A stretch of 64,000 bases of DNA from the IMG/VR virus record IMGVR_UViG_3300044611_001018. One strand, written 5' to 3'. The notes beneath the pieces are model-generated. The model saw nothing but the letters and a program-made list of their open reading frames with translations, was not told the DNA's origin and did no database searches. Below, piece after piece: positions 1 to 59,737 of the stretch (its first letter is position 1; each line of letters opens with the position of its first letter). This DNA comes from a virus (Duplodnaviria; Caudoviricetes). The translations under genes were made by a program, and so were the position numbers.

Positions 1-70
1 CTCTTTTCAAAGTTTGATTTGGGCGGTCGTTGGTGTCATATTCGACACCACGATATACGACTTTAGACAT
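1..70 (-). CDS. DUF4278-family small protein, 5' part (runs off the window)
   Basis: Hand translation MSKVVYRGVEYDTNDRPNQTLKR; YRGV-Y motif; SD-like AAGGAGAA at 76-83; lies downstream of glnA-type RNA. Confidence 0.75.
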   Translation of the reverse strand, partial: MSKVVYRGVEYDTNDRPNQTLKR

Positions 71-100
71 TAGGGTTCTCCTTAATTTTGAGGCTAAAGA

Positions 101-270
101 GCGTTCCTTCAGTCGGCTTTTGCGTCTATTTTACACTCTTTGGGAGAGATTTGTTTAATCTCCCAAATTAAATCATTCTTAATCTGTTTAGGAATGTCTT
201 GTTTATTAACTCTCCCAGCAATTAACTGTGCCTGTAAGCATGAAAGAATGAGTGCTTCCATAGATGAACG
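101..270 (-). ncRNA. Glutamine (glnA-type) riboswitch-like aptamer 2 with a ~140-nt loop
   Basis: Minus strand CGTTCA-TCTAT...ATAGA-CGCAAAAGCCGACTGAAGGAACGC; same 5' and 3' blocks as aptamer 1. Confidence 0.65.
109..261 (-). CDS. 50-aa ORF nested in aptamer 2
   Basis: ATG at 261, TGA at 109-111; MEALILSCLQAQLIAGRVNKQDIPKQIKNDLIWEIKQISPKECKIDAKAD; below ORF-track cutoff. Confidence 0.6.
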   Translation of the reverse strand: MEALILSCLQAQLIAGRVNKQDIPKQIKNDLIWEIKQISPKECKIDAKAD

Positions 271-313
271 TTCCGTTCCGAGTCGGCTTACTTCCGTCCC
301 ATAGGGATGAACG
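269..313 (-). ncRNA. Glutamine (glnA-type) riboswitch-like aptamer 1
   Basis: CGTTCA-TCCC-TAT-GGGA-CGGAAGTAAGCCGACTCGGAACGGAACG; CGUUC/GAACG closing stem and GACGGAAGUA core recalled from the glnA motif. Confidence 0.75.
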
Positions 314-320
314 TAAGGTC

Positions 321-349
321 ATTATAGACCTATTGCATTATATAGGCAA
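321..349 (-). promoter_or_regulatory. sigma70-type promoter of the riboswitch leader
   Basis: TTGCCT(349-344)-17 nt-TATAAT(326-321), ending about 8 nt before aptamer 1. Confidence 0.75.
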
Positions 350-37489: not shown

Positions 37490-37595
37490 TTTAAAAAAAG
37501 TAGTAAGACCATCAGGGAAATGGTGGTGATACTATGCTCCCCGCACCCTCAGCGGGGATATGAGAGACGTTTTTATACTCCCCATAGGTCTCGGT
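37490..37595 (-). ncRNA. PhotoRC-II-like psbA leader RNA
   Basis: ACGTCTCTCAT-ATCCCCGC-TGAGGGT-GCGGGGA...CACCACCATTTCCCTGATGGTCTTAC; position and hairpins match the cyanophage psbA leader as recalled. Confidence 0.65.
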
Positions 37596-37603
37596 TAGTG
37601 GGA

Positions 37604-37680
37604 GTTACAAACATTAAAGATTTGTTACGTTCCTTAACGTTTGATGTATTTATATTAACATATCCTCATACTGGTGTCAA
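37604..37680 (-). promoter_or_regulatory. psbA promoter region: sigma70, late motif and 10-bp-period repeats
   Basis: TTGACA(37680-37675)-17-TAATAT, ATAAATA, and plus-strand GTTACAAA/TTAAAGAT/GTTACGTT/TTAACGTT at 37604-37641. Confidence 0.7.
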
Positions 37681-52450: not shown

Positions 52451-52462
52451 AAAAACCAAAGA

Positions 52463-52580
52463 AGGACGCGCCACCTAGTTTTGACTGAACTAGGAAACAG
52501 GCGGGAGAGATTCCCATCCGCACCAGTCGGCATATTTAAAGTCCATCCGACGAGGACATAAGGGGTCAGATTGACTCCAC
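52463..52580 (-). ncRNA. wcaG RNA motif-like cis-regulatory element
   Basis: Two UGGYG blocks (TGGTG 52525-52521, TGGCG 52473-52469) flanking hairpins GCGGATGGGA..TCCCGC and CCTAGTT..AACTAGG; directly before an ORF. Confidence 0.6.
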
Positions 52581-53335: not shown

Positions 53336-53407
53336 TAGGACTGCTGAGAATTGAACTCAGTTCACACCGTTATAAGCAGTGGGCCTTAACCAATAGGCGA
53401 CAGTCCC
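53336..53407 (-). tRNA. tRNA-Ile(TAT)
   Basis: GGGACTG/CAGTCCT, CACTG-CTTATAA-CGGTG, GTTCAA. Confidence 0.9.
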
Positions 53408-53411
53408 TCGA

Positions 53412-53936
53412 TTAAAAATAGTTAACTATTACAATAGATCTAAAAAAAGAATCCGTGCAAGTTGTACTACAATGATTTTTACTTGGATCAAAGAATAGTG
53501 CTCTATTCTCTATTGATTCTACTTTAGTTCCATCTTCCAAAATAGTAAATCCATTATTAGTATTCAAATAAACTATCAATCCAAAATGTTCATATGGATA
53601 ATCTATATGCATCCCATGCTGGACAATTTTATTTGTTTTTGGATAGACATTTGCTCTTGCTCTAATAATTGCTTTTGGATTTATTTTTTCAAAGATTGGG
53701 TTTAAAGATCCAAAGTATTGACTAGAAATATTGTAGTCTGTATAAAACGTGTGGGTAAAATAAATTCCTTCATCATTGTAAGTATTCTTTGTTGATATTC
53801 CATGATTTAAAAACCAAGGAATTGTATTATTTCCCACAATTGTTTTTTTAAAATGTTCAAAAATTGATGGTTCAATAAAGTTATCAATAATTTTTGTTGA
53901 CTGGTCCATAGTAACAGATGGTCTTATGGTTGTCAA
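53412..53936 (-). CDS. 2OG-Fe(II) oxygenase-like protein
   Basis: IIDNFI, MHID, VYLNTNNGFT, NRALFF...HCS..R. Confidence 0.75.
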   Translation of the reverse strand: MTTIRPSVTMDQSTKIIDNFIEPSIFEHFKKTIVGNNTIPWFLNHGISTKNTYNDEGIYFTHTFYTDYNISSQYFGSLNPIFEKINPKAIIRARANVYPKTNKIVQHGMHIDYPYEHFGLIVYLNTNNGFTILEDGTKVESIENRALFFDPSKNHCSTTCTDSFFRSIVIVNYF

Positions 53937-54130
53937 GGTGCTTCGTTGTGGTCAGTGTATATTCGTATCAATTCTTCATCTGCTGGCATGAGCACTGCTT
54001 CACCATACTCACTAGTGATGATAAAAGACTTCATTTCCTTTTCAACCAAATTCATTAAGTTATCAAAATCTGCTTGAAACTCTTCCACAGTATACCTCTT
54101 TAAACTACCAAGTTCCTTTTCGATACTCAT
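53933..54130 (-). CDS. Phd/YefM antitoxin-like small protein
   Basis: YTVEEFQADFDNLMNLVE...FIIT...GEAVLMP. Confidence 0.5.
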   Translation of the reverse strand: MSIEKELGSLKRYTVEEFQADFDNLMNLVEKEMKSFIITSEYGEAVLMPADEELIRIYTDHNEAP

Positions 54131-54812
54131 CATCAACCTCCGCAGGACAAAGATATTGTACTTTATTATTTTTATATGGGATATAATCCCAATTTTCTGG
54201 TCTCCAATGAAAGTACATGTTCCTATAATAATCTCCTTGAAATGGAGTATATCTAGAGTGAACACATAGACTCTCATATAATAACATGTCACCAGGTTCA
54301 AAAACAACCTTGTGTCTAACACCATCATGATCCCAAAAATCTAAAGGCCAATTTGTATTTTTGGGTTGCTCGTCAATAAAAATTATACAACTAATAATAT
54401 GAGTTTTTATTTCATCTCGGTGTAAACATAATATTGAGTCTTTTGGATAACTTCTTATTCCATAACCCGTGCTATATTTTAATTTTTGATGAGACCATTC
54501 TTCCAATATTGGTTGAAGAATATCCGCCCATTCTTTTAATTTTTCTGTGGGAATATGGTTTATATGGGTATAAGGATTTTTAATTCTTTTAGGGTCACCT
54601 AAAGGATTTCTAAATGCTATCGAACCAGCCGTAATGTGTTCTCCGTATTTAGGATCATAATGAGAATTGGTAGAATCTTCTTTTTGTGAGAAGTCGCAAG
54701 TATTATAAAAATTCAATATTTCAGAATATAAATTCTCTGGAACCCTGACCAGTTTAAACGGATTATCTGCAAAACTTGGCCACTTCATTTTAATTTGGGA
54801 CCATACATCCAA
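54105..54812 (-). CDS. 2OG-Fe(II) oxygenase-like protein
   Basis: LHRD, WPLDF, PGDMLLYE, HSR. Confidence 0.75.
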   Translation of the reverse strand: MDVWSQIKMKWPSFADNPFKLVRVPENLYSEILNFYNTCDFSQKEDSTNSHYDPKYGEHITAGSIAFRNPLGDPKRIKNPYTHINHIPTEKLKEWADILQPILEEWSHQKLKYSTGYGIRSYPKDSILCLHRDEIKTHIISCIIFIDEQPKNTNWPLDFWDHDGVRHKVVFEPGDMLLYESLCVHSRYTPFQGDYYRNMYFHWRPENWDYIPYKNNKVQYLCPAEVDDEYRKGTW

Positions 54813-55396
54813 GTAACCAAAGATACTCTTCTTCCTCTTGTTACTGGAGTAACTCTATGAGGAATTCTTGAATCAAATACAATAACAGATCCTTTTTCTT
54901 TTGGTGCCTGTATAATATTGCCATGATAGTCTATGAATTCTAAGTCACCACCATCATATTCAGAAGGGTCACTAACTAAAACACTTGCACTAAGTTTTCT
55001 AGTCCACTTCCCATTTTTTGAAGTTCCATAATCACTATGCCAACCATAGTGTCCATTTTCAAGATATACTGAGATTTGTATACTTTCAAGTAAATTCAAA
55101 TCATATTCCCAATACTTTCTATTAGATAAACCAATATAATAAGAAATTACACTACATGCCCAATGGTCTTCAAACCACCAATTGATTTTAGAATTTCTAA
55201 TTTTTGGGTCTATCCGACCATTATCCTCACCACCAACACCAGCATCTTCAAATGGAACTTTAAATTCTTCCATCTCTTTCAATTCTTTGACCATAAGATC
55301 TACCAAATCTTCTGGAAGAACTTCTCTATGATAAACTAATGGAGAATCTGCAAGAACATGTGGTTCTTGACCGTTTATTTTAATACTTTTATCCAT
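54785..55396 (-). CDS. 2OG-Fe(II) oxygenase (PKHD/P4H-like)
   Basis: WHSD, RKLS, YDGGDL, FDSRIPHRVTPVTRGRRVSLV.W. Confidence 0.9.
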   Translation of the reverse strand: MDKSIKINGQEPHVLADSPLVYHREVLPEDLVDLMVKELKEMEEFKVPFEDAGVGGEDNGRIDPKIRNSKINWWFEDHWACSVISYYIGLSNRKYWEYDLNLLESIQISVYLENGHYGWHSDYGTSKNGKWTRKLSASVLVSDPSEYDGGDLEFIDYHGNIIQAPKEKGSVIVFDSRIPHRVTPVTRGRRVSLVTWMYGPKLK

Positions 55397-55423
55397 GAAT
55401 TAAAAGAACAAATATTGTCCAAG

Positions 55424-55498
55424 TCGGGGTGAAAGGATTTGAACCTTCGGCCCCTGCTTCCCAAAAGCAGTGCTCTATCCAAACTGAGCTACACCCCG
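55424..55498 (-). tRNA. tRNA-Pro(TGG)
   Basis: CGGGGTG/CACCCCG, CTGCT-TTTGGGA-AGCAG. Confidence 0.95.
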
Positions 55499-55516
55499 TT
55501 GACTTGGTATGAGGAT

Positions 55517-55545
55517 ATTATACATCCTCATAATTTTGTTGTCAA
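55517..55545 (-). promoter_or_regulatory. Consensus sigma70 promoter of tRNA-Pro
   Basis: TTGACA-17-TATAAT. Confidence 0.85.
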
Positions 55546-56138
55546 GCGTTTAAGACTTCCTCTCTTATATATGAAGCAATCAATACCCCTCGACGAGTAT
55601 CTGACTTATTATAAGCATAATGTTCTGATAATTTTTCATCAAATAAATTTAAGTCTCCATTTTTAAGAAGACGTTCTTCTCCATTAACAACCAATGCTGA
55701 AGGTCCATCGCTTGGAATATCTAAACTAAAATGATACTTTATTACACTTGAATGTAAAAAGTTATCATCAATTCTTTCATCTCCATCAGAATGGGGACTA
55801 ATTTCAACTCCTGGTTCAAGAATAGAAAATACAGCAAGAACTGGTTTAATTGATTGACTAAGTAATATTCTTACTGTCTCAGACTGTTGTACTTGAAGAG
55901 GTGTCCTTAAAATTTGCTGTCTATTAAAAATTAATGGACACACTTTCCAGGGAAAATTTGGAGTGTATGTTGGAACAAACCCCAAAAAATTATTATCTAA
56001 TGAAGTTAAATTGTATGTATGAGAATAATCTATAAAATAATTACAATCCCTAAATTCAATATAATCACTTTTAATTTGAGAGTAATTAGATGTAAAAATA
56101 GAAGTTTGTATTTTACTCAATTTTGGTTCAATAAACAT
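55542..56138 (-). CDS. Aspartyl/asparaginyl beta-hydroxylase-like oxygenase
   Basis: FSILEPG..ISPHSD, YHFSL, FDE...HYAYN...R.VLI. Confidence 0.8.
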   Translation of the reverse strand: MFIEPKLSKIQTSIFTSNYSQIKSDYIEFRDCNYFIDYSHTYNLTSLDNNFLGFVPTYTPNFPWKVCPLIFNRQQILRTPLQVQQSETVRILLSQSIKPVLAVFSILEPGVEISPHSDGDERIDDNFLHSSVIKYHFSLDIPSDGPSALVVNGEERLLKNGDLNLFDEKLSEHYAYNKSDTRRGVLIASYIREEVLNA

Positions 56139-56171
56139 TATTTAATATAATAATTTTTATTATTTATGGGG

Positions 56172-56288
56172 TTATAACCCACTACCATTCCTAAACCCAT
56201 ACACGTATCCCACAATAAGACCACACATAAACACAATAAAAATCAAAACTTGTTTACCAAGAAACTCAATAAGTTCCTGCCATTCCAT
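56172..56288 (-). CDS. Small membrane protein (38 aa)
   Basis: MEWQELIEFLGKQVLIFIVFMCGLIVGYVYGFRNGSGL. Confidence 0.55.
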   Translation of the reverse strand: MEWQELIEFLGKQVLIFIVFMCGLIVGYVYGFRNGSGL

Positions 56289-56397
56289 AGTCATCATCGT
56301 CCTCATAAGTTGATGGTTCTTCAAACAACTCAGACATCTTTTGTTGTTTAACTAGTTCTTGCAATTCCTTTAAATCTTCTTCTGTAAGCGATATCAT
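56266..56397 (-). CDS. Small acidic protein (43 aa)
   Basis: MISLTEEDLKELQELVKQQKMSELFEEPSTYEDDDDYGMAGTY. Confidence 0.6.
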   Translation of the reverse strand: MISLTEEDLKELQELVKQQKMSELFEEPSTYEDDDDYGMAGTY

Positions 56398-56573
56398 TTG
56401 TCCTTGAGTAATTCTTCTATTCTTTTACGCATATTTGTGCTATCTTGTTTCAAATAGTCCCGAAGAGAATATCCTCGGTGACCCTTCATAATACAAGTGC
56501 CCTGATAAAACATCGTGGCAGCAAATACTAACAGAAAAACTATTCCAATTATTTCAAGGTGATATTGAGCCAT
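56394..56573 (-). CDS. Small membrane protein (59 aa)
   Basis: MAQYHLEIIGIVFLLVFAATMFYQG...; ATGA overlap with the next gene. Confidence 0.6.
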   Translation of the reverse strand: MAQYHLEIIGIVFLLVFAATMFYQGTCIMKGHRGYSLRDYLKQDSTNMRKRIEELLKDK

Positions 56574-56767
56574 GGTAGTAGAGGTGGTATTACTCCAATA
56601 AGTCGAAGAAGACCTTCAGCAAAAAGTGAAAGAACAACCCAACCAACACACATTGAAATAACCGAAGCATTACGATTATGTCTTCGTATGGCATCATCAA
56701 TCATCTCCTGACACTGCTTCTGTGTCACATAATGTTCTGAATTTATTTTAGTCATTCTGTGGACCAC
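56549..56767 (-). CDS. Small membrane protein
   Basis: EMIDDAIRRHNRNA plus hydrophobic helix. Confidence 0.7.
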   Translation of the reverse strand: MVHRMTKINSEHYVTQKQCQEMIDDAIRRHNRNASVISMCVGWVVLSLFAEGLLRLIGVIPPLLPWLNITLK

Positions 56768-57008
56768 GGAACTCGTCTTGCTCTAATTGGGTCAATCTCC
56801 TTTCCCATGTTATCCCACTTGTTGAACCTTTGCATGGATTTATGCAGGTTTCATCACCAAAGTTATTACATACAAGACCTGCAAGATCATGTGGGTCACC
56901 TTCTTTCCCAGTACCAGACCAATAATGCTGCCCATTCAACCAAATGGCACCACACTTAGGACATTCCTTCCTATCAATAGACAGGTCGGACAGTTCTTTA
57001 TTATTCAT
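56748..57008 (-). CDS. Small Cys-containing (Zn-ribbon-like) protein
   Basis: CPKC...C...C...C. Confidence 0.7.
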   Translation of the reverse strand: MNNKELSDLSIDRKECPKCGAIWLNGQHYWSGTGKEGDPHDLAGLVCNNFGDETCINPCKGSTSGITWERRLTQLEQDEFRGPQND

Positions 57009-57240
57009 TAGGATAATCCTTTAGAAATTTTTCGTAGCTCTTTGTGTCTTTAATTAGCTGACGCTTTAATTTCCATCCTAAAACTTTCATTTGCATCCGA
57101 ATAAAAAAGTGACGCAATTCAAGATCCAGATATGTAAAAACTCTCATGGTCCCTTCAAGTCCTGCATAGGCAACCATAAGTCCAAGGATTATTATTGTTA
57201 TATAAAATCCTAGTAAAGGAGTTGTTGTAGATGGGTCCAT
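57001..57240 (-). CDS. Small membrane protein
   Basis: N-terminal hydrophobic helix, 79 aa. Confidence 0.65.
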   Translation of the reverse strand: MDPSTTTPLLGFYITIIILGLMVAYAGLEGTMRVFTYLDLELRHFFIRMQMKVLGWKLKRQLIKDTKSYEKFLKDYPNE

Positions 57241-57356
57241 TAAGGCACAGTGCTACGTGTACTTACAAATTGTATATAGGTAATACAATAATGTCAACGT
57301 CTCATTAGTATCTCCTGATACTAAGTTTAATAACAATCAAAAGAAATAGTTAAAAA

Positions 57357-57442
57357 CGGAAGCGGTAGGATTTGAACCCACGAACGCTGTTAACGTTGGT
57401 TGTTTTCAAGACAACTGCCATAAACCACTCGGCCACGCTTCC
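57357..57442 (-). tRNA. tRNA-Ser(TGA)
   Basis: GGAAGCG/CGCTTCC, CTTGAAA loop, long variable arm; TTGACA-17-TATACT upstream. Confidence 0.95.
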
Positions 57443-57490
57443 AGTATTTGATTTCTTATAGTATAATATATCTATATTATTTTGTCAAAC

Positions 57491-58090
57491 ATGAACATAG
57501 ATGAATATCTTTTAAGTCTAGGATATGACGATAAAGAGACCTTATACGAACCTGGTAAGAAGTTATCTATAAAAATTCCATTTGATTTTAATGGTAAAAG
57601 AATTAATATCTGCCCATACATTGTTCCATATTATAGCAAAAAAAGTTACATAGCAGCAGAATATAATTACTCAGTTTACTACGACAATCCAGAAGTAACC
57701 AAACAAAAAATTCTAAATTTAATCAAATACATTAAATATCCAGAACCAGGTAGAGTTGGTGATATTGGATGGGAAGCAGAATATCTTGTAGACCCCAGAG
57801 AATTTACTGCTGAAGAAAGAGCACGTATTGTTGTATCTAGTTTTAAAAAATTTAGAACCTTAATTTTAAAAGGTGAATGGTTGGACGGAATCAGAGCACA
57901 ACCAGGTGATATTGTAGCATCTAAACCAATAGGAATTAAATTTGATATGGGATTTAATGAAGAATCGGAAAAAGAAGGAACTCTCCAAAGAAGCATACTT
58001 TCAAAAAAAGTATTCAGGTTTGGAGAGTTAAAAGAAGATGGAATGCAATATTCAATTATTGGAGAAGATTTAGATATGCATCCTATCTAA
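57491..58090 (+). CDS. Hypothetical protein
   Basis: About 199-aa ORF opposite to the tRNA array; ATG at 57491. Confidence 0.65.
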   Translation: MNIDEYLLSLGYDDKETLYEPGKKLSIKIPFDFNGKRINICPYIVPYYSKKSYIAAEYNYSVYYDNPEVTKQKILNLIKYIKYPEPGRVGDIGWEAEYLVDPREFTAEERARIVVSSFKKFRTLILKGEWLDGIRAQPGDIVASKPIGIKFDMGFNEESEKEGTLQRSILSKKVFRFGELKEDGMQYSIIGEDLDMHPI

Positions 58091-58334
58091 CTTCAAAGTC
58101 CAACTTACGGACTTTCCTTTGCCTTCTACTTTCTTGCCAAGAAATATCATCAGAAGATAAGACTCCAATATTTTTATTTGGGGTCTTAGTACTTTCAATA
58201 ATAATGACTTGACTAAGGTCATTTGCAAAAATAGTATCATTCTTAATAGATGTCATATTAGGACATCCACAAGAAATAGTTTTTGCAACATGAGCTTGCA
58301 GTTCTTTATTGCAAGATTTACAACGTATTAACAT
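58083..58334 (-). CDS. Small Cys-containing hypothetical protein
   Basis: RCKSC...CGCPN. Confidence 0.7.
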   Translation of the reverse strand: MLIRCKSCNKELQAHVAKTISCGCPNMTSIKNDTIFANDLSQVIIIESTKTPNKNIGVLSSDDISWQESRRQRKVRKLDFEVR

Positions 58335-58361
58335 TTTATCAAACCATATATTAAATATGTA

Positions 58362-58433
58362 TGGGCGAAGAGGGGATCGAACCCCCGACCGACTGGGTGT
58401 AAACCAGTAGCTCTACCGCTGAGCTATTCGCCC
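58362..58433 (-). tRNA. tRNA-Val(TAC)
   Basis: GGGCGAA/TTCGCCC, TTTACAC loop. Confidence 0.95.
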
Positions 58434-58614
58434 TTAATGAGTAGTGAGTGCCCACCACTCGCGGAAGACACTTTCCGCAAAAGCTTCACTTTCGTGAAGA
58501 GTCAATAGACACGCTATTGACATGTTTTTTGTTACTGGCGGGGGTGATCAAGTCCCCGACCTAAGCGAACTTAGGATTTAGTAAGGAAGACCCAGACATT
58601 TCTAGACCTTCCAA
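58434..58614 (-). ncRNA. manA RNA motif-like multi-hairpin element
   Basis: Fills the Asn-Val spacer: GGAAGGTCTAGA..TCTGGGTCTTCC, CCTAAG..CTTAGG, GTCAATAG..CTATTGAC, CTTCAC-GAAA-GTGAAG; manA RNAs are known beside cyanophage tRNAs. Confidence 0.55.
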
Positions 58615-58686
58615 CTGCCCAGCCTGGGATCGAACCAGGGACCAATCGATTAACAGTCGATAGCTCTACCGCTGAGCTACTAGGCA
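58615..58686 (-). tRNA. tRNA-Asn(GTT)
   Basis: TGCCTAG/CTGGGCA, ATCGA-CTGTTAA-TCGAT. Confidence 0.95.
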
Positions 58687-58757
58687 TTATATTTTTTTAT
58701 TTAATCACCTATAAATGTTATCACACTTATTTTAAATTGTCAAGTAGGTTTTTTTAT

Positions 58758-59456
58758 TTAGAGTAAATCATCAATCTTAACTTTTTGATCAAAGCATAAA
58801 CAATACCTTGGGGTTGACAAAGTATTATAAACCATATGAGTAGTATTTCCCCAAAAAAACATAAATTTATTATTTTCAAAATATTCACTAAATACTCCCT
58901 TTTGAGTATTCAATGCCAAAAATGCATACTCATCTTTAGATGATTGAACGTCTAATCCCCACAAACCCCTAATAGTGATGTAATCATCATCAGAAGGATC
59001 ATTATCTACATGCCAGTCAATTGCTTTACCTGGATAAACAACACTAATACCAACCCTTTGTCTTAAACCAGACTGATAAGAAACATTAGTTAAAGTTGGT
59101 AGATATTCTGCATTATCGCTGTAAATAATATCTCTTTCATAATCTATATGAGCCTTGGTTTTGTAAACATGCTCATAGTAATGTCTATTCTGTTCAATAT
59201 AATTATTATATTCAAGATATAATGCAGCAACTTGCCACCCATCATATGGGTTTGATTTTACAGACGTGTAATAATTATTACCTGCCCAATTTGTCCAAAT
59301 AAGTTTATCCTTATTTTGATTAAACTCTTCAACAATTGATTGATAATTGTCAGAGAGGAGTTTAAGTTCAGGATTTATTTCTTCTAAAGAATAAAATCTT
59401 CCCATAATAGTATGAAATATCAGTAATGGATCTGGTGATATATGTAACATACTCAA
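58758..59456 (-). CDS. Aspartyl/asparaginyl beta-hydroxylase-like oxygenase
   Basis: GWQVAAL, VVYPG..IDWHVD, HMVYN...R; start probably near MGRFYS. Confidence 0.7.
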   Translation of the reverse strand: MSMLHISPDPLLIFHTIMGRFYSLEEINPELKLLSDNYQSIVEEFNQNKDKLIWTNWAGNNYYTSVKSNPYDGWQVAALYLEYNNYIEQNRHYYEHVYKTKAHIDYERDIIYSDNAEYLPTLTNVSYQSGLRQRVGISVVYPGKAIDWHVDNDPSDDDYITIRGLWGLDVQSSKDEYAFLALNTQKGVFSEYFENNKFMFFWGNTTHMVYNTLSTPRYCLCFDQKVKIDDLL

Positions 59457-59466
59457 TTATTAGTTA

Positions 59467-59539
59467 TGGAGAATAGCGGACTCGAACCGCTGACATCCTG
59501 CTTGCAAAGCAGGCGCTCTACCAACTGAGCTAATTCCCC
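59467..59539 (-). tRNA. tRNA-Ala(TGC)
   Basis: GGGGAAT/ATTCTCC with G3-U70, CCTGC-TTTGCAA-GCAGG. Confidence 0.95.
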
Positions 59540-59616
<77 letters not shown>

Positions 59617-59624
59617 ATAAGACA

Positions 59625-59653
59625 ATTATACCAGTGATGGATTTAATTGTCAA
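59625..59653 (-). promoter_or_regulatory. Consensus sigma70 promoter of tRNA-Arg/Ala
   Basis: TTGACA-17-TATAAT. Confidence 0.85.
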
Positions 59654-59655
59654 GG

Positions 59656-59737
59656 TGGGCAGGGAGGGATTTGAACCCCCGTAGGCAGAGCCAGCGGATT
59701 TACAGTCCGCCTCCATTAACCACTCGGACACCTACCC
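59656..59737 (-). tRNA. tRNA-Tyr(GTA)
   Basis: GGGTAGG/CCTGCCC, GCGGA-CTGTAAA-TCCGC, long variable arm. Confidence 0.95.

Follow-up and report, generated by a model that had tools for sequence, protein, structure and literature searches.

Can a conserved protein-coding gene lie inside the ligand-binding domain of a riboswitch, and how would translation of such a gene be reconciled with folding of the RNA? Riboswitch aptamers are usually treated as non-coding elements that precede the genes they control. The question is raised by one end of the IMG/VR virus record IMGVR_UViG_3300044611_001018, a 64,000-nt stretch of cyanophage DNA from a lake (hereafter, the window), where a tandem glutamine riboswitch of the glnA type (Rfam RF01739) and a 50-residue open reading frame (ORF) share the nucleotides of a helix and of the aptamer core. 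Everything described at this end lies on the minus strand.

It is already known that glutamine riboswitches occur in tandem, that they are linked to DUF4278 and that cyanophages carry them. Tandem copies precede DUF4278/gifB genes (Weinberg 2010, PMC2864571; Klahn 2018, PMC6212724), type 1 glutamine riboswitches turn translation of gifB (DUF4278) on (Klahn 2018, PMC6212724), and a compact phage tandem in S-CREM1 has been annotated as a glnA riboswitch (PMC9964418). An earlier description of the window made from its letters (the sequence-only reading) had claimed that the second aptamer of such a tandem is split by a gene. We found the tandem as described and the layout to be general, as it was present in 71 of approximately 120 loci. 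These loci comprise IMG/VR stretches, fetched phage records and the window, and in them an upstream CGUUC with a complementary strand for the second helix of the aptamer (P2) was found. The IMG/VR stretches (at least 119) were obtained by scanning with an exact pattern of the 3′ core; P2, the 5′ side and the ORF lie outside this search pattern, and all locus counts given here are among the matches listed.

Architecture of the split aptamer

The first aptamer is compact and lies at 315..270, where cmscan with the RF01739 model (53 positions, curated cut-off 35 bits) scored it at 33.2 bits (E 2.7e-5). A genome search gave the same match, and the sequence-only reading had already placed a compact glnA aptamer here (269-313). 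The conserved parts of the family used for comparison were the junction ACGGAAGUA, the P3 mini-hairpin and GAAGGAACG. In aptamer 1, helix P1 is formed by CGUUC (313..309) and GAACG (278..274) and P2 by UCCC (307..304) and GGGA (300..297); the junction is CGGAAGUA, followed by the mini-hairpin AGCCGACU and by CGGAACG where the family has GAAGGAACG.

The second aptamer is in two halves. Its 5′ half (270..260) consists of the P1 5′ strand CGUUC (270..266), an A (265) and the P2 5′ strand UCUAU (264..260), and includes the A and U of the ORF start codon. Its 3′ half (129..102) consists of the P2 strand AUAGA (129..125), the junction CGCAAAA (124..118), the mini-hairpin GCCGACU (117..111) and GAAGGAACG (110..102), within which the P1 3′ strand occupies 106..102. 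P2 is thus a 5-bp helix, UCUAU/AUAGA, around 130 nt. The sequence-only reading had the stem right, whereas the roughly 140 nt that it took to be enclosed correspond to the distance between the first nucleotide of P2 and the junction. The P1 helix CGUUC/GAACG closes the three-helix junction in both aptamers and, being invariant, offers no covariation. P2 of aptamer 2 sits directly between CGUUCA and the ACG junction, as the family requires, and both P3 (GCCGACU) and GAAGGAACG are present. When the 169 nt of window 270..102 were folded without constraint, P1, P2, the P3 mini-hairpin and a 6-bp extension of P2 all formed (z -2.6). In this minimum free energy (MFE) fold the extension pairs GCACUC (250..255, codons 3-4 of the ORF) with GAGUGU (133..138, Glu-Cys codons near its end); compensatory versions of it occur in DSL-LC03 and S-SRM01, and other clades have other extension helices.

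Comparison across loci supports pairing of the two distant P2 strands. The 69 unique elements with an expanded P2 contain 14 versions of the stem (e.g., UCUAU/AUAGA, UCCCA/UGGGA, UCCUU/AAGGA, UCCUC/GAGGA), and 99.7% of P2 cells are paired, against 76% when partners are shuffled between loci (maximum 85% in 1000 shuffles). Sliding the 3′ strand by 1-2 nt reduces pairing to 36-55%. The MAFFT alignment (A3) was anchored on the ATG and not on the P2 register, and P2 pairs were therefore counted by script.

Compact twins of aptamer 2, which have the same 5′ block and 3′ core, often the same downstream leader, and a short P2 hairpin, were scored on RF01739 to represent aptamer 2 with its loop removed. 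Twins with the same core scored 33.5 (S-CREM1), 33.9, 34.6 (locus L072, with flanks equal to those of the window), 36.9 and 37.2 bits, so that the fit of a loop-removed aptamer 2 to the family equals or exceeds that of aptamer 1 in the window. The Infernal search without the loop that the sequence-only reading had proposed is, by way of these natural twins, answered with 34.6-37.2 bits.

These comparisons bear on the possibility that aptamer 2 lost glutamine binding once a gene had entered it. Its halves would then have been kept as the start region of the nested gene and as the expression platform of the downstream DUF4278 gene, with the long-range helix acting as a ligand-independent translational brake or an RNA-stabilizing clamp. 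The junction CGCAAAA does depart from the consensus CGGAAGUA, and P2 and its extension form in the thermodynamic fold without ligand. However, the variant junction is also found in compact second aptamers above the Rfam cut-off (37.2 and 36.9 bits), P1, P3 and GAAGGAACG are intact, and expanded first aptamers (see below) have the CGCAAGUA/CGGAAGUA junction of compact ones. Moreover, CGUUCA and an exact 5-bp P2 in register with the core answer the need of an aptamer and go beyond that of a clamp. We consider loss of sensing improbable. A genuine second aptamer, its P2 hairpin extended to a long-range helix that encloses a small translated gene, is instead part of the explanation that we judge probable as a whole.

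A conserved gene within the P2 loop

The nested ORF runs from an ATG at 261..259 to a TGA at 111..109 and encodes 50 residues (MEALILSC...CKIDAKAD; 261..109), in agreement with the earlier claim of a frame that starts in the stem and ends in the 3′ block of the aptamer. The AU of its start codon is within P2, its UGA is within the aptamer core, and the 3′ half of aptamer 2 encodes the tail DAKAD and the stop. In 69 of the 71 expanded loci the ATG is at +9 to +11 from CGUUC, that is, in or touching P2. The frame is likewise open to the core UGA in 69 of 71, giving ORFs of 49-66 residues with length changes that preserve the frame; in the remaining two it ends at a UAA or UAG in the 3′ strand of P2.

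It could be argued that the 130 nt form a structured RNA domain with an open frame that arose by accident, and the inserts are indeed unusually well folded. Yet frame 0 is free of stops in 66 of 68 inserts, as opposed to 1/68 and 0/68 for the other frames and 2.7% of shuffled inserts, and frame-keeping changes account for the range of lengths. Relative to its nearest relatives, the window ORF has a proportion of nonsynonymous differences (pN) of 0.05-0.16 and of synonymous differences (pS) of 0.42-0.87, the latter near saturation, and a ratio of nonsynonymous to synonymous rates (dN/dS) of 0.03-0.15. The 68 distinct peptides begin with a hydrophobic stretch and carry two cysteines that do not vary across 63 sequences, at 37% mean column identity, and an AlphaFold2 model of the nested peptide is a two-helix hairpin with a predicted local distance difference test (pLDDT) score of 86. 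The interior RNA helices are not conserved. We regard an accidental frame as extremely improbable. The codon-level conservation that the sequence-only reading had named as a check is present in both the dN/dS values and the open frame, and codon comparison shows the nested gene as one under purifying selection at the level of the protein.

Against codon-shuffled versions (n = 68) the inserts have a mean folding z of -3.3, and 84% are below -1.64. The 5′ and 3′ ends of an ORF pair with each other at -6.7 kcal/mol, compared with -4.9 kcal/mol for pairing with the ends of unrelated members (p 6e-5). Selection also acts on the compact folding of the coding insert, which joins the two aptamer halves.

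The nested peptide belongs to phrog_504, a cyanophage small protein family (E 2.8e-4 for the window ORF, 1.1e-5 for DSL-LC03 and 3.1e-17 for P-RSM6), and its family has 869 clusters in a large protein database. The ORF is annotated as a hypothetical protein in DSL-LC02, S-SRM01 and P-RSM6. No Pfam family was matched by the peptide, and a fold search of its model against the PDB returned nothing below E 7, with no usable match in the protein atlas. A secreted or lipoprotein reading of the window peptide was rejected by eye, as only seven residues (MEALILS) precede the first cysteine and there is no basic n-region; by eye, the residues before the cysteine also misfit a lipobox in most members of the family.

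Each of the 120 best homologues terminates in DAKAD, or in a variant with one residue changed, a tail that is the translation of the aptamer core. There was no free-standing copy of the gene among these 120, and one read-through fusion still contains the tail. In protein P0110 (108 residues, six contigs) the core UGA reads UGG, and the ORF is fused in frame, via the aptamer 3′ half and the Shine-Dalgarno sequence (SD), into the DUF4278 protein.

Very diverged phages keep both aptamer halves, P2 pairing and reading frame together, and we consider it highly probable that aptamer and gene function as a unit.

Compact and expanded alleles in cyanophages

In the approximately 120 loci the P2 partner lies 138-195 nt upstream in 71 (expanded) and 11-43 nt upstream in 49 (compact), and the expanded layout also occurs in many cultured marine cyanophages. 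Contigs from lake metatranscriptomes cover the ORF, and among them a compact allele is swapped in precisely at the boundaries of P2 (1552 to 1691 of L130, the genome record that has the locus of the window and shows the sequence beyond the window start). The depth of lake RNA-library contigs climbs right after the predicted promoter, a profile that mixes relatives, may include DNA carry-over and is no proof of a start or of expression. Marine RNA runs contain 33-62% of the words of a P-SSM4-like locus. Among 185,579 genomes of prokaryote species the exact 3′ core was found in only five contigs, one a Prochlorococcus single-cell contig and the rest metagenome-bin contigs of 3.8-12 kb that are possibly binned phage DNA.

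The first aptamer is also expanded in some phages. Thirty-six of 98 unique aptamers of the CGGAAGUA/CGCAAGUA type have a P2 span of 190-225 nt, with five of five P2 pairs formed in 32 of the 36 and an ATG at +10 to +12, and they retain the CGCAAGUA/CGGAAGUA junction of compact first aptamers. Examples are found in IMG/VR loci L006-L122 (e.g., L019 5149-5349 and L053 3378-3581), Syn9 (L131 689-889), P-SSM4 (L132 701-901) and P-HM2 (L133 701-904). The ORFs in these first aptamers encode 61-69 residues with two cysteines, often end in ...GRK at the UAA of the core CGCAAGUAAG, and belong to phrog_6471. They are distantly related to the aptamer-2 ORFs (hhalign 94%, E 9e-8, over an alignment that runs from cysteine to cysteine), and the aptamer-2 ORF of L091 is by eye close to aptamer-1 ORFs of other loci. 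Both aptamers are expanded in many phages; among cultured ones, both nested genes are present in tandem in Syn9 (gp196 and gp197), P-SSM4 (PSSM4_169.2 and 169.3; T4-GC 429 and 430) and P-HM2 (PHM2_179 and 180). Freshwater aptamer-1 ORFs start with MTKALLLLAWVPLLS..., which by eye resembles a signal peptide.

The exchange of alleles raises a further possibility, namely that a small gene settled in an insertion-tolerant P2 loop under the demands of genome compactness and that the overlap has no regulatory meaning for this gene. The aptamer would then sense glutamine for the DUF4278 gene on ribosome-free transcripts, and the nested gene would be constitutive or follow rules of its own. Compact and expanded alleles do exchange at the same site in near-identical loci, so that the switch would work without the nested gene; the stop codons used (UGA, UAA) are already present in compact aptamer cores; a few ORFs end ahead of the core; and the downstream genes vary, with DUF4278 in most loci and another gene in Syn9, L070 and L086. 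On the other hand, a non-coding spacer was never seen in the P2 loop, 69 of 71 loci have the ATG at most 1-2 nt from P2, and every ORF extends to P2 or the core. Apart from a GGA in the GGAACGGA of the preceding aptamer, no SD precedes the nested gene, in contrast to the AGGAG or AAGGAG of the downstream gene. In addition, the best 120 homologues all carry the aptamer-encoded tail with no free-standing copy among them, and the arrangement is kept in both aptamers, with a coding sequence shaped to fold. We rate a gene that merely lodges in the loop as rather unlikely.

The leader, promoter and downstream genes

A sigma70-like promoter, as claimed in the sequence-only reading, precedes the tandem at 349..321, with -35 TTGCCT (349..344), a 17-nt spacer and -10 TATAAT (326..321), matching the consensus at 10 of 12 positions. 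The predicted transcription start is a few nucleotides upstream of aptamer 1, and 36 of 68 related loci have a similar promoter 4-12 nt ahead of their first aptamer. The two aptamers are separated by a 3-nt linker, GAA (273..271), and linkers of 3-5 nt are found in most related tandems, compact and expanded. This linker is also the loop of an alternative hairpin, GAACG-GAA-CGUUC (window 266-278, minus strand), in which the P1 3′ strand of aptamer 1 pairs perfectly with the P1 5′ strand of aptamer 2. The hairpin is part of the MFE fold of the whole leader and excludes both P1 helices, which in this model would arise jointly or not at all.

A second predicted hairpin in the MFE fold of the leader (101..78) pairs CUCUUUAG (101..94) with UUAAGGAG (85..78). 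The SD of the downstream gene, AAGGAG (83..78), lies in UUAAGGAG and is masked in the whole-leader thermodynamic fold. The gene itself (MSKVVYRGVEYD...) starts at 70 and runs off the window (70..1). It is complete in L130, where it encodes a 55-residue protein with two YRG motifs that matches phrog_5049 (E 1.4e-9) and Pfam DUF4278 at E 7e-4 and 20.3 bits, below the cut-off of 25.3 bits. The earlier claim of an SD and a DUF4278 gene after the nested ORF is therefore borne out for the SD and, at this sub-threshold score, for the family. A basic, lysine-rich ORF of 33 residues (L130 1910-2011), for which no family match was found, shares an ATGA overlap with the DUF4278-like gene and lies ahead of a strong terminator (L130 2015-2040), this end of the operon spanning L130 1746-2040. 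We view the locus as a short early-type phage operon behind a tandem glnA-type riboswitch, a view that forms part of the overall explanation we find probable.

In Syn9 (L131 1159-1323), L070 and L086 the gene after the riboswitch starts with MNTLTL... rather than with a YRG (DUF4278-type) start. The riboswitch may not necessarily be tied to one output gene. In marine relatives a manA RNA adjoins the riboswitch operon, downstream of it in P-RSM6 (L004 1969-2154) and upstream in P-SSM4. Elsewhere in the window, on the minus strand, are a PhotoRC-II RNA (37524-37617, 77 bits) and a wcaG RNA (52460-52559, 61 bits), and on the same strand a cluster of eight tRNA genes (53336-59737); these three features are typical of T4-like cyanomyoviruses.

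A proposed mechanism

As the start codon of the nested gene overlaps P2 and its stop codon overlaps the core, translation of the gene and folding of the aptamer are mutually exclusive, and the competition between them that had been proposed from the letters of the window follows physically from these overlaps. The sequence-only reading is in this way supported in part: its structural side holds, and its proposals that the competition serves regulation and that the two small proteins may act on glutamine synthetase control stand as hypotheses. A 30S subunit on the nested start would need the 5′ strands of P1 and P2 to be single-stranded, an elongating ribosome would melt the P2 extension, and a terminating ribosome would cover the core and the P1 3′ strand; a folded aptamer, in turn, would hide the nested start codon. 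Since the 5′ half is transcribed approximately 140 nt before the 3′ half, ribosomes may load before the aptamer forms. Stabilization of the fold by glutamine would turn the nested gene off and, by analogy with gifB, would switch on the DUF4278 (IF17-like) gene behind it, so that a single sensor would have two opposite outputs, which would also depend on ribosome traffic. The predicted fold of the whole leader, with P1 strands cross-paired and the SD masked, fits a ligand-free off state.

Several observations weigh against this interpretation. The intact aptamer 2 (~170 nt) gave no match to RF01739, as it is too long for the model, and even aptamer 1, at 33.2 bits, falls just below the curated cut-off. 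The junction of aptamer 2 is two nucleotides shorter than the consensus, a feature shared with compact second aptamers above the cut-off. Selection of loci by the exact 3′ core means that core conservation is unreadable from the IMG/VR set. The P2 extension is clade-specific, and own ends pair just moderately better than foreign ones. No conserved interior structure was found by RNAalifold over 28 inserts of the freshwater clade, an analysis in which P2 was mis-drawn, and the interior helices vary by clade. The SD-masking hairpin is a feature of most freshwater-clade members, is absent from some loci and shows no covariation in the related loci. Lastly, the SD hairpin could be opened by a ribosome that terminates at the core UGA, which would couple both genes positively, the opposite of a reciprocal logic.

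On balance, an aptamer that encloses a gene and may have reciprocal outputs remains the best explanation of the locus, and as a whole we think it probable. The specific form of a reciprocal, ribosome-aware switch, in which low glutamine would yield the two-cysteine peptide, high glutamine would yield the IF17-like protein, and ribosomes on the nested gene would veto sensing, is put forward more tentatively, as a possible mode of operation that we hold to be somewhat less likely than not.

Relation to known systems

The window resembles known glnA tandems in having a core of P1, P2, junction and P3, a CGGAAGUA-type aptamer followed by a CGCAAA-type one, a linker of 3-5 nt, a strong SD and then a DUF4278-like gene with YRG motifs. 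S-CREM1 matches the window in its 3′ core and downstream leader. The window differs from these tandems in that P2 of its second aptamer is a long-range helix around a 50-residue gene, whereas theirs has a loop of 3-12 nt, and in that the expanded element is not spanned by the Rfam model; other phages expand the first aptamer too.

Genes in the loops of functional RNAs have precedents. Peripheral loops of group I and II introns can house ORFs for endonucleases or maturases, and ORF-bearing introns coexist with ORF-less ones. As in the window, a gene is placed in a loop of a functional RNA whose ends are joined by a closing helix, but introns are ribozymes with the genes of mobile elements, in contrast to a metabolite sensor with an ORF that overlaps the conserved core. 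Coupling of translation to RNA folding is likewise familiar, as in trp-type attenuators the position of the ribosome on a short ORF decides the fold of the RNA and so affects the downstream gene. A translated upstream ORF (uORF) is reported in the leader of a mycobacterial B12 riboswitch (bioRxiv 10.1101/2023.04.25.538288). In such leader-peptide and uORF systems the ORF is beside or after the sensing fold and the peptide is usually not known to be a conserved functional protein, whereas the ORF of the window is inside the ligand-binding domain and belongs to a conserved two-cysteine family with hundreds of members. Eukaryotic thiamine pyrophosphate (TPP) riboswitches resemble the window in their long-distance base pairing (Li and Breaker 2013, PMC3597705). 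Unlike the window, where the competing process would be translation, they act on alternative splicing of pre-mRNA, and they are not known to enclose a translated gene.

We found no description of a gene inside a glnA aptamer in the literature searched, a scope outside which Ames and Breaker (2011) lies. The published glnA alignment (Weinberg 2010, PMC2864571) includes at least four expanded Global Ocean Sampling (GOS) scaffolds that are aligned for aptamer 1 only, with the split aptamer 2 and its ORF left as unaligned flank. Phage annotations have listed the nested genes as hypothetical proteins since 2010 or earlier, without a link to the riboswitch. Covariance-model searches detect half of these switches, and the second aptamer has been missed in genomes that have been annotated for 15 years.

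The locus is a natural case of one sequence under selection for both a protein and an RNA fold. It also offers a direct test bed for the wiring of ribosome traffic and metabolite sensing through one helix, for which cultured phage-host pairs exist. If the reciprocal switch is true, a single metabolite would set the order of three small proteins in Syn9, P-SSM4 and P-HM2. Lake and ocean cyanophages commonly have this arrangement, and its early-type operon includes a homologue of the glutamine synthetase inactivator domain; for these reasons the arrangement may bear on how phages read and reset the nitrogen status of their hosts.

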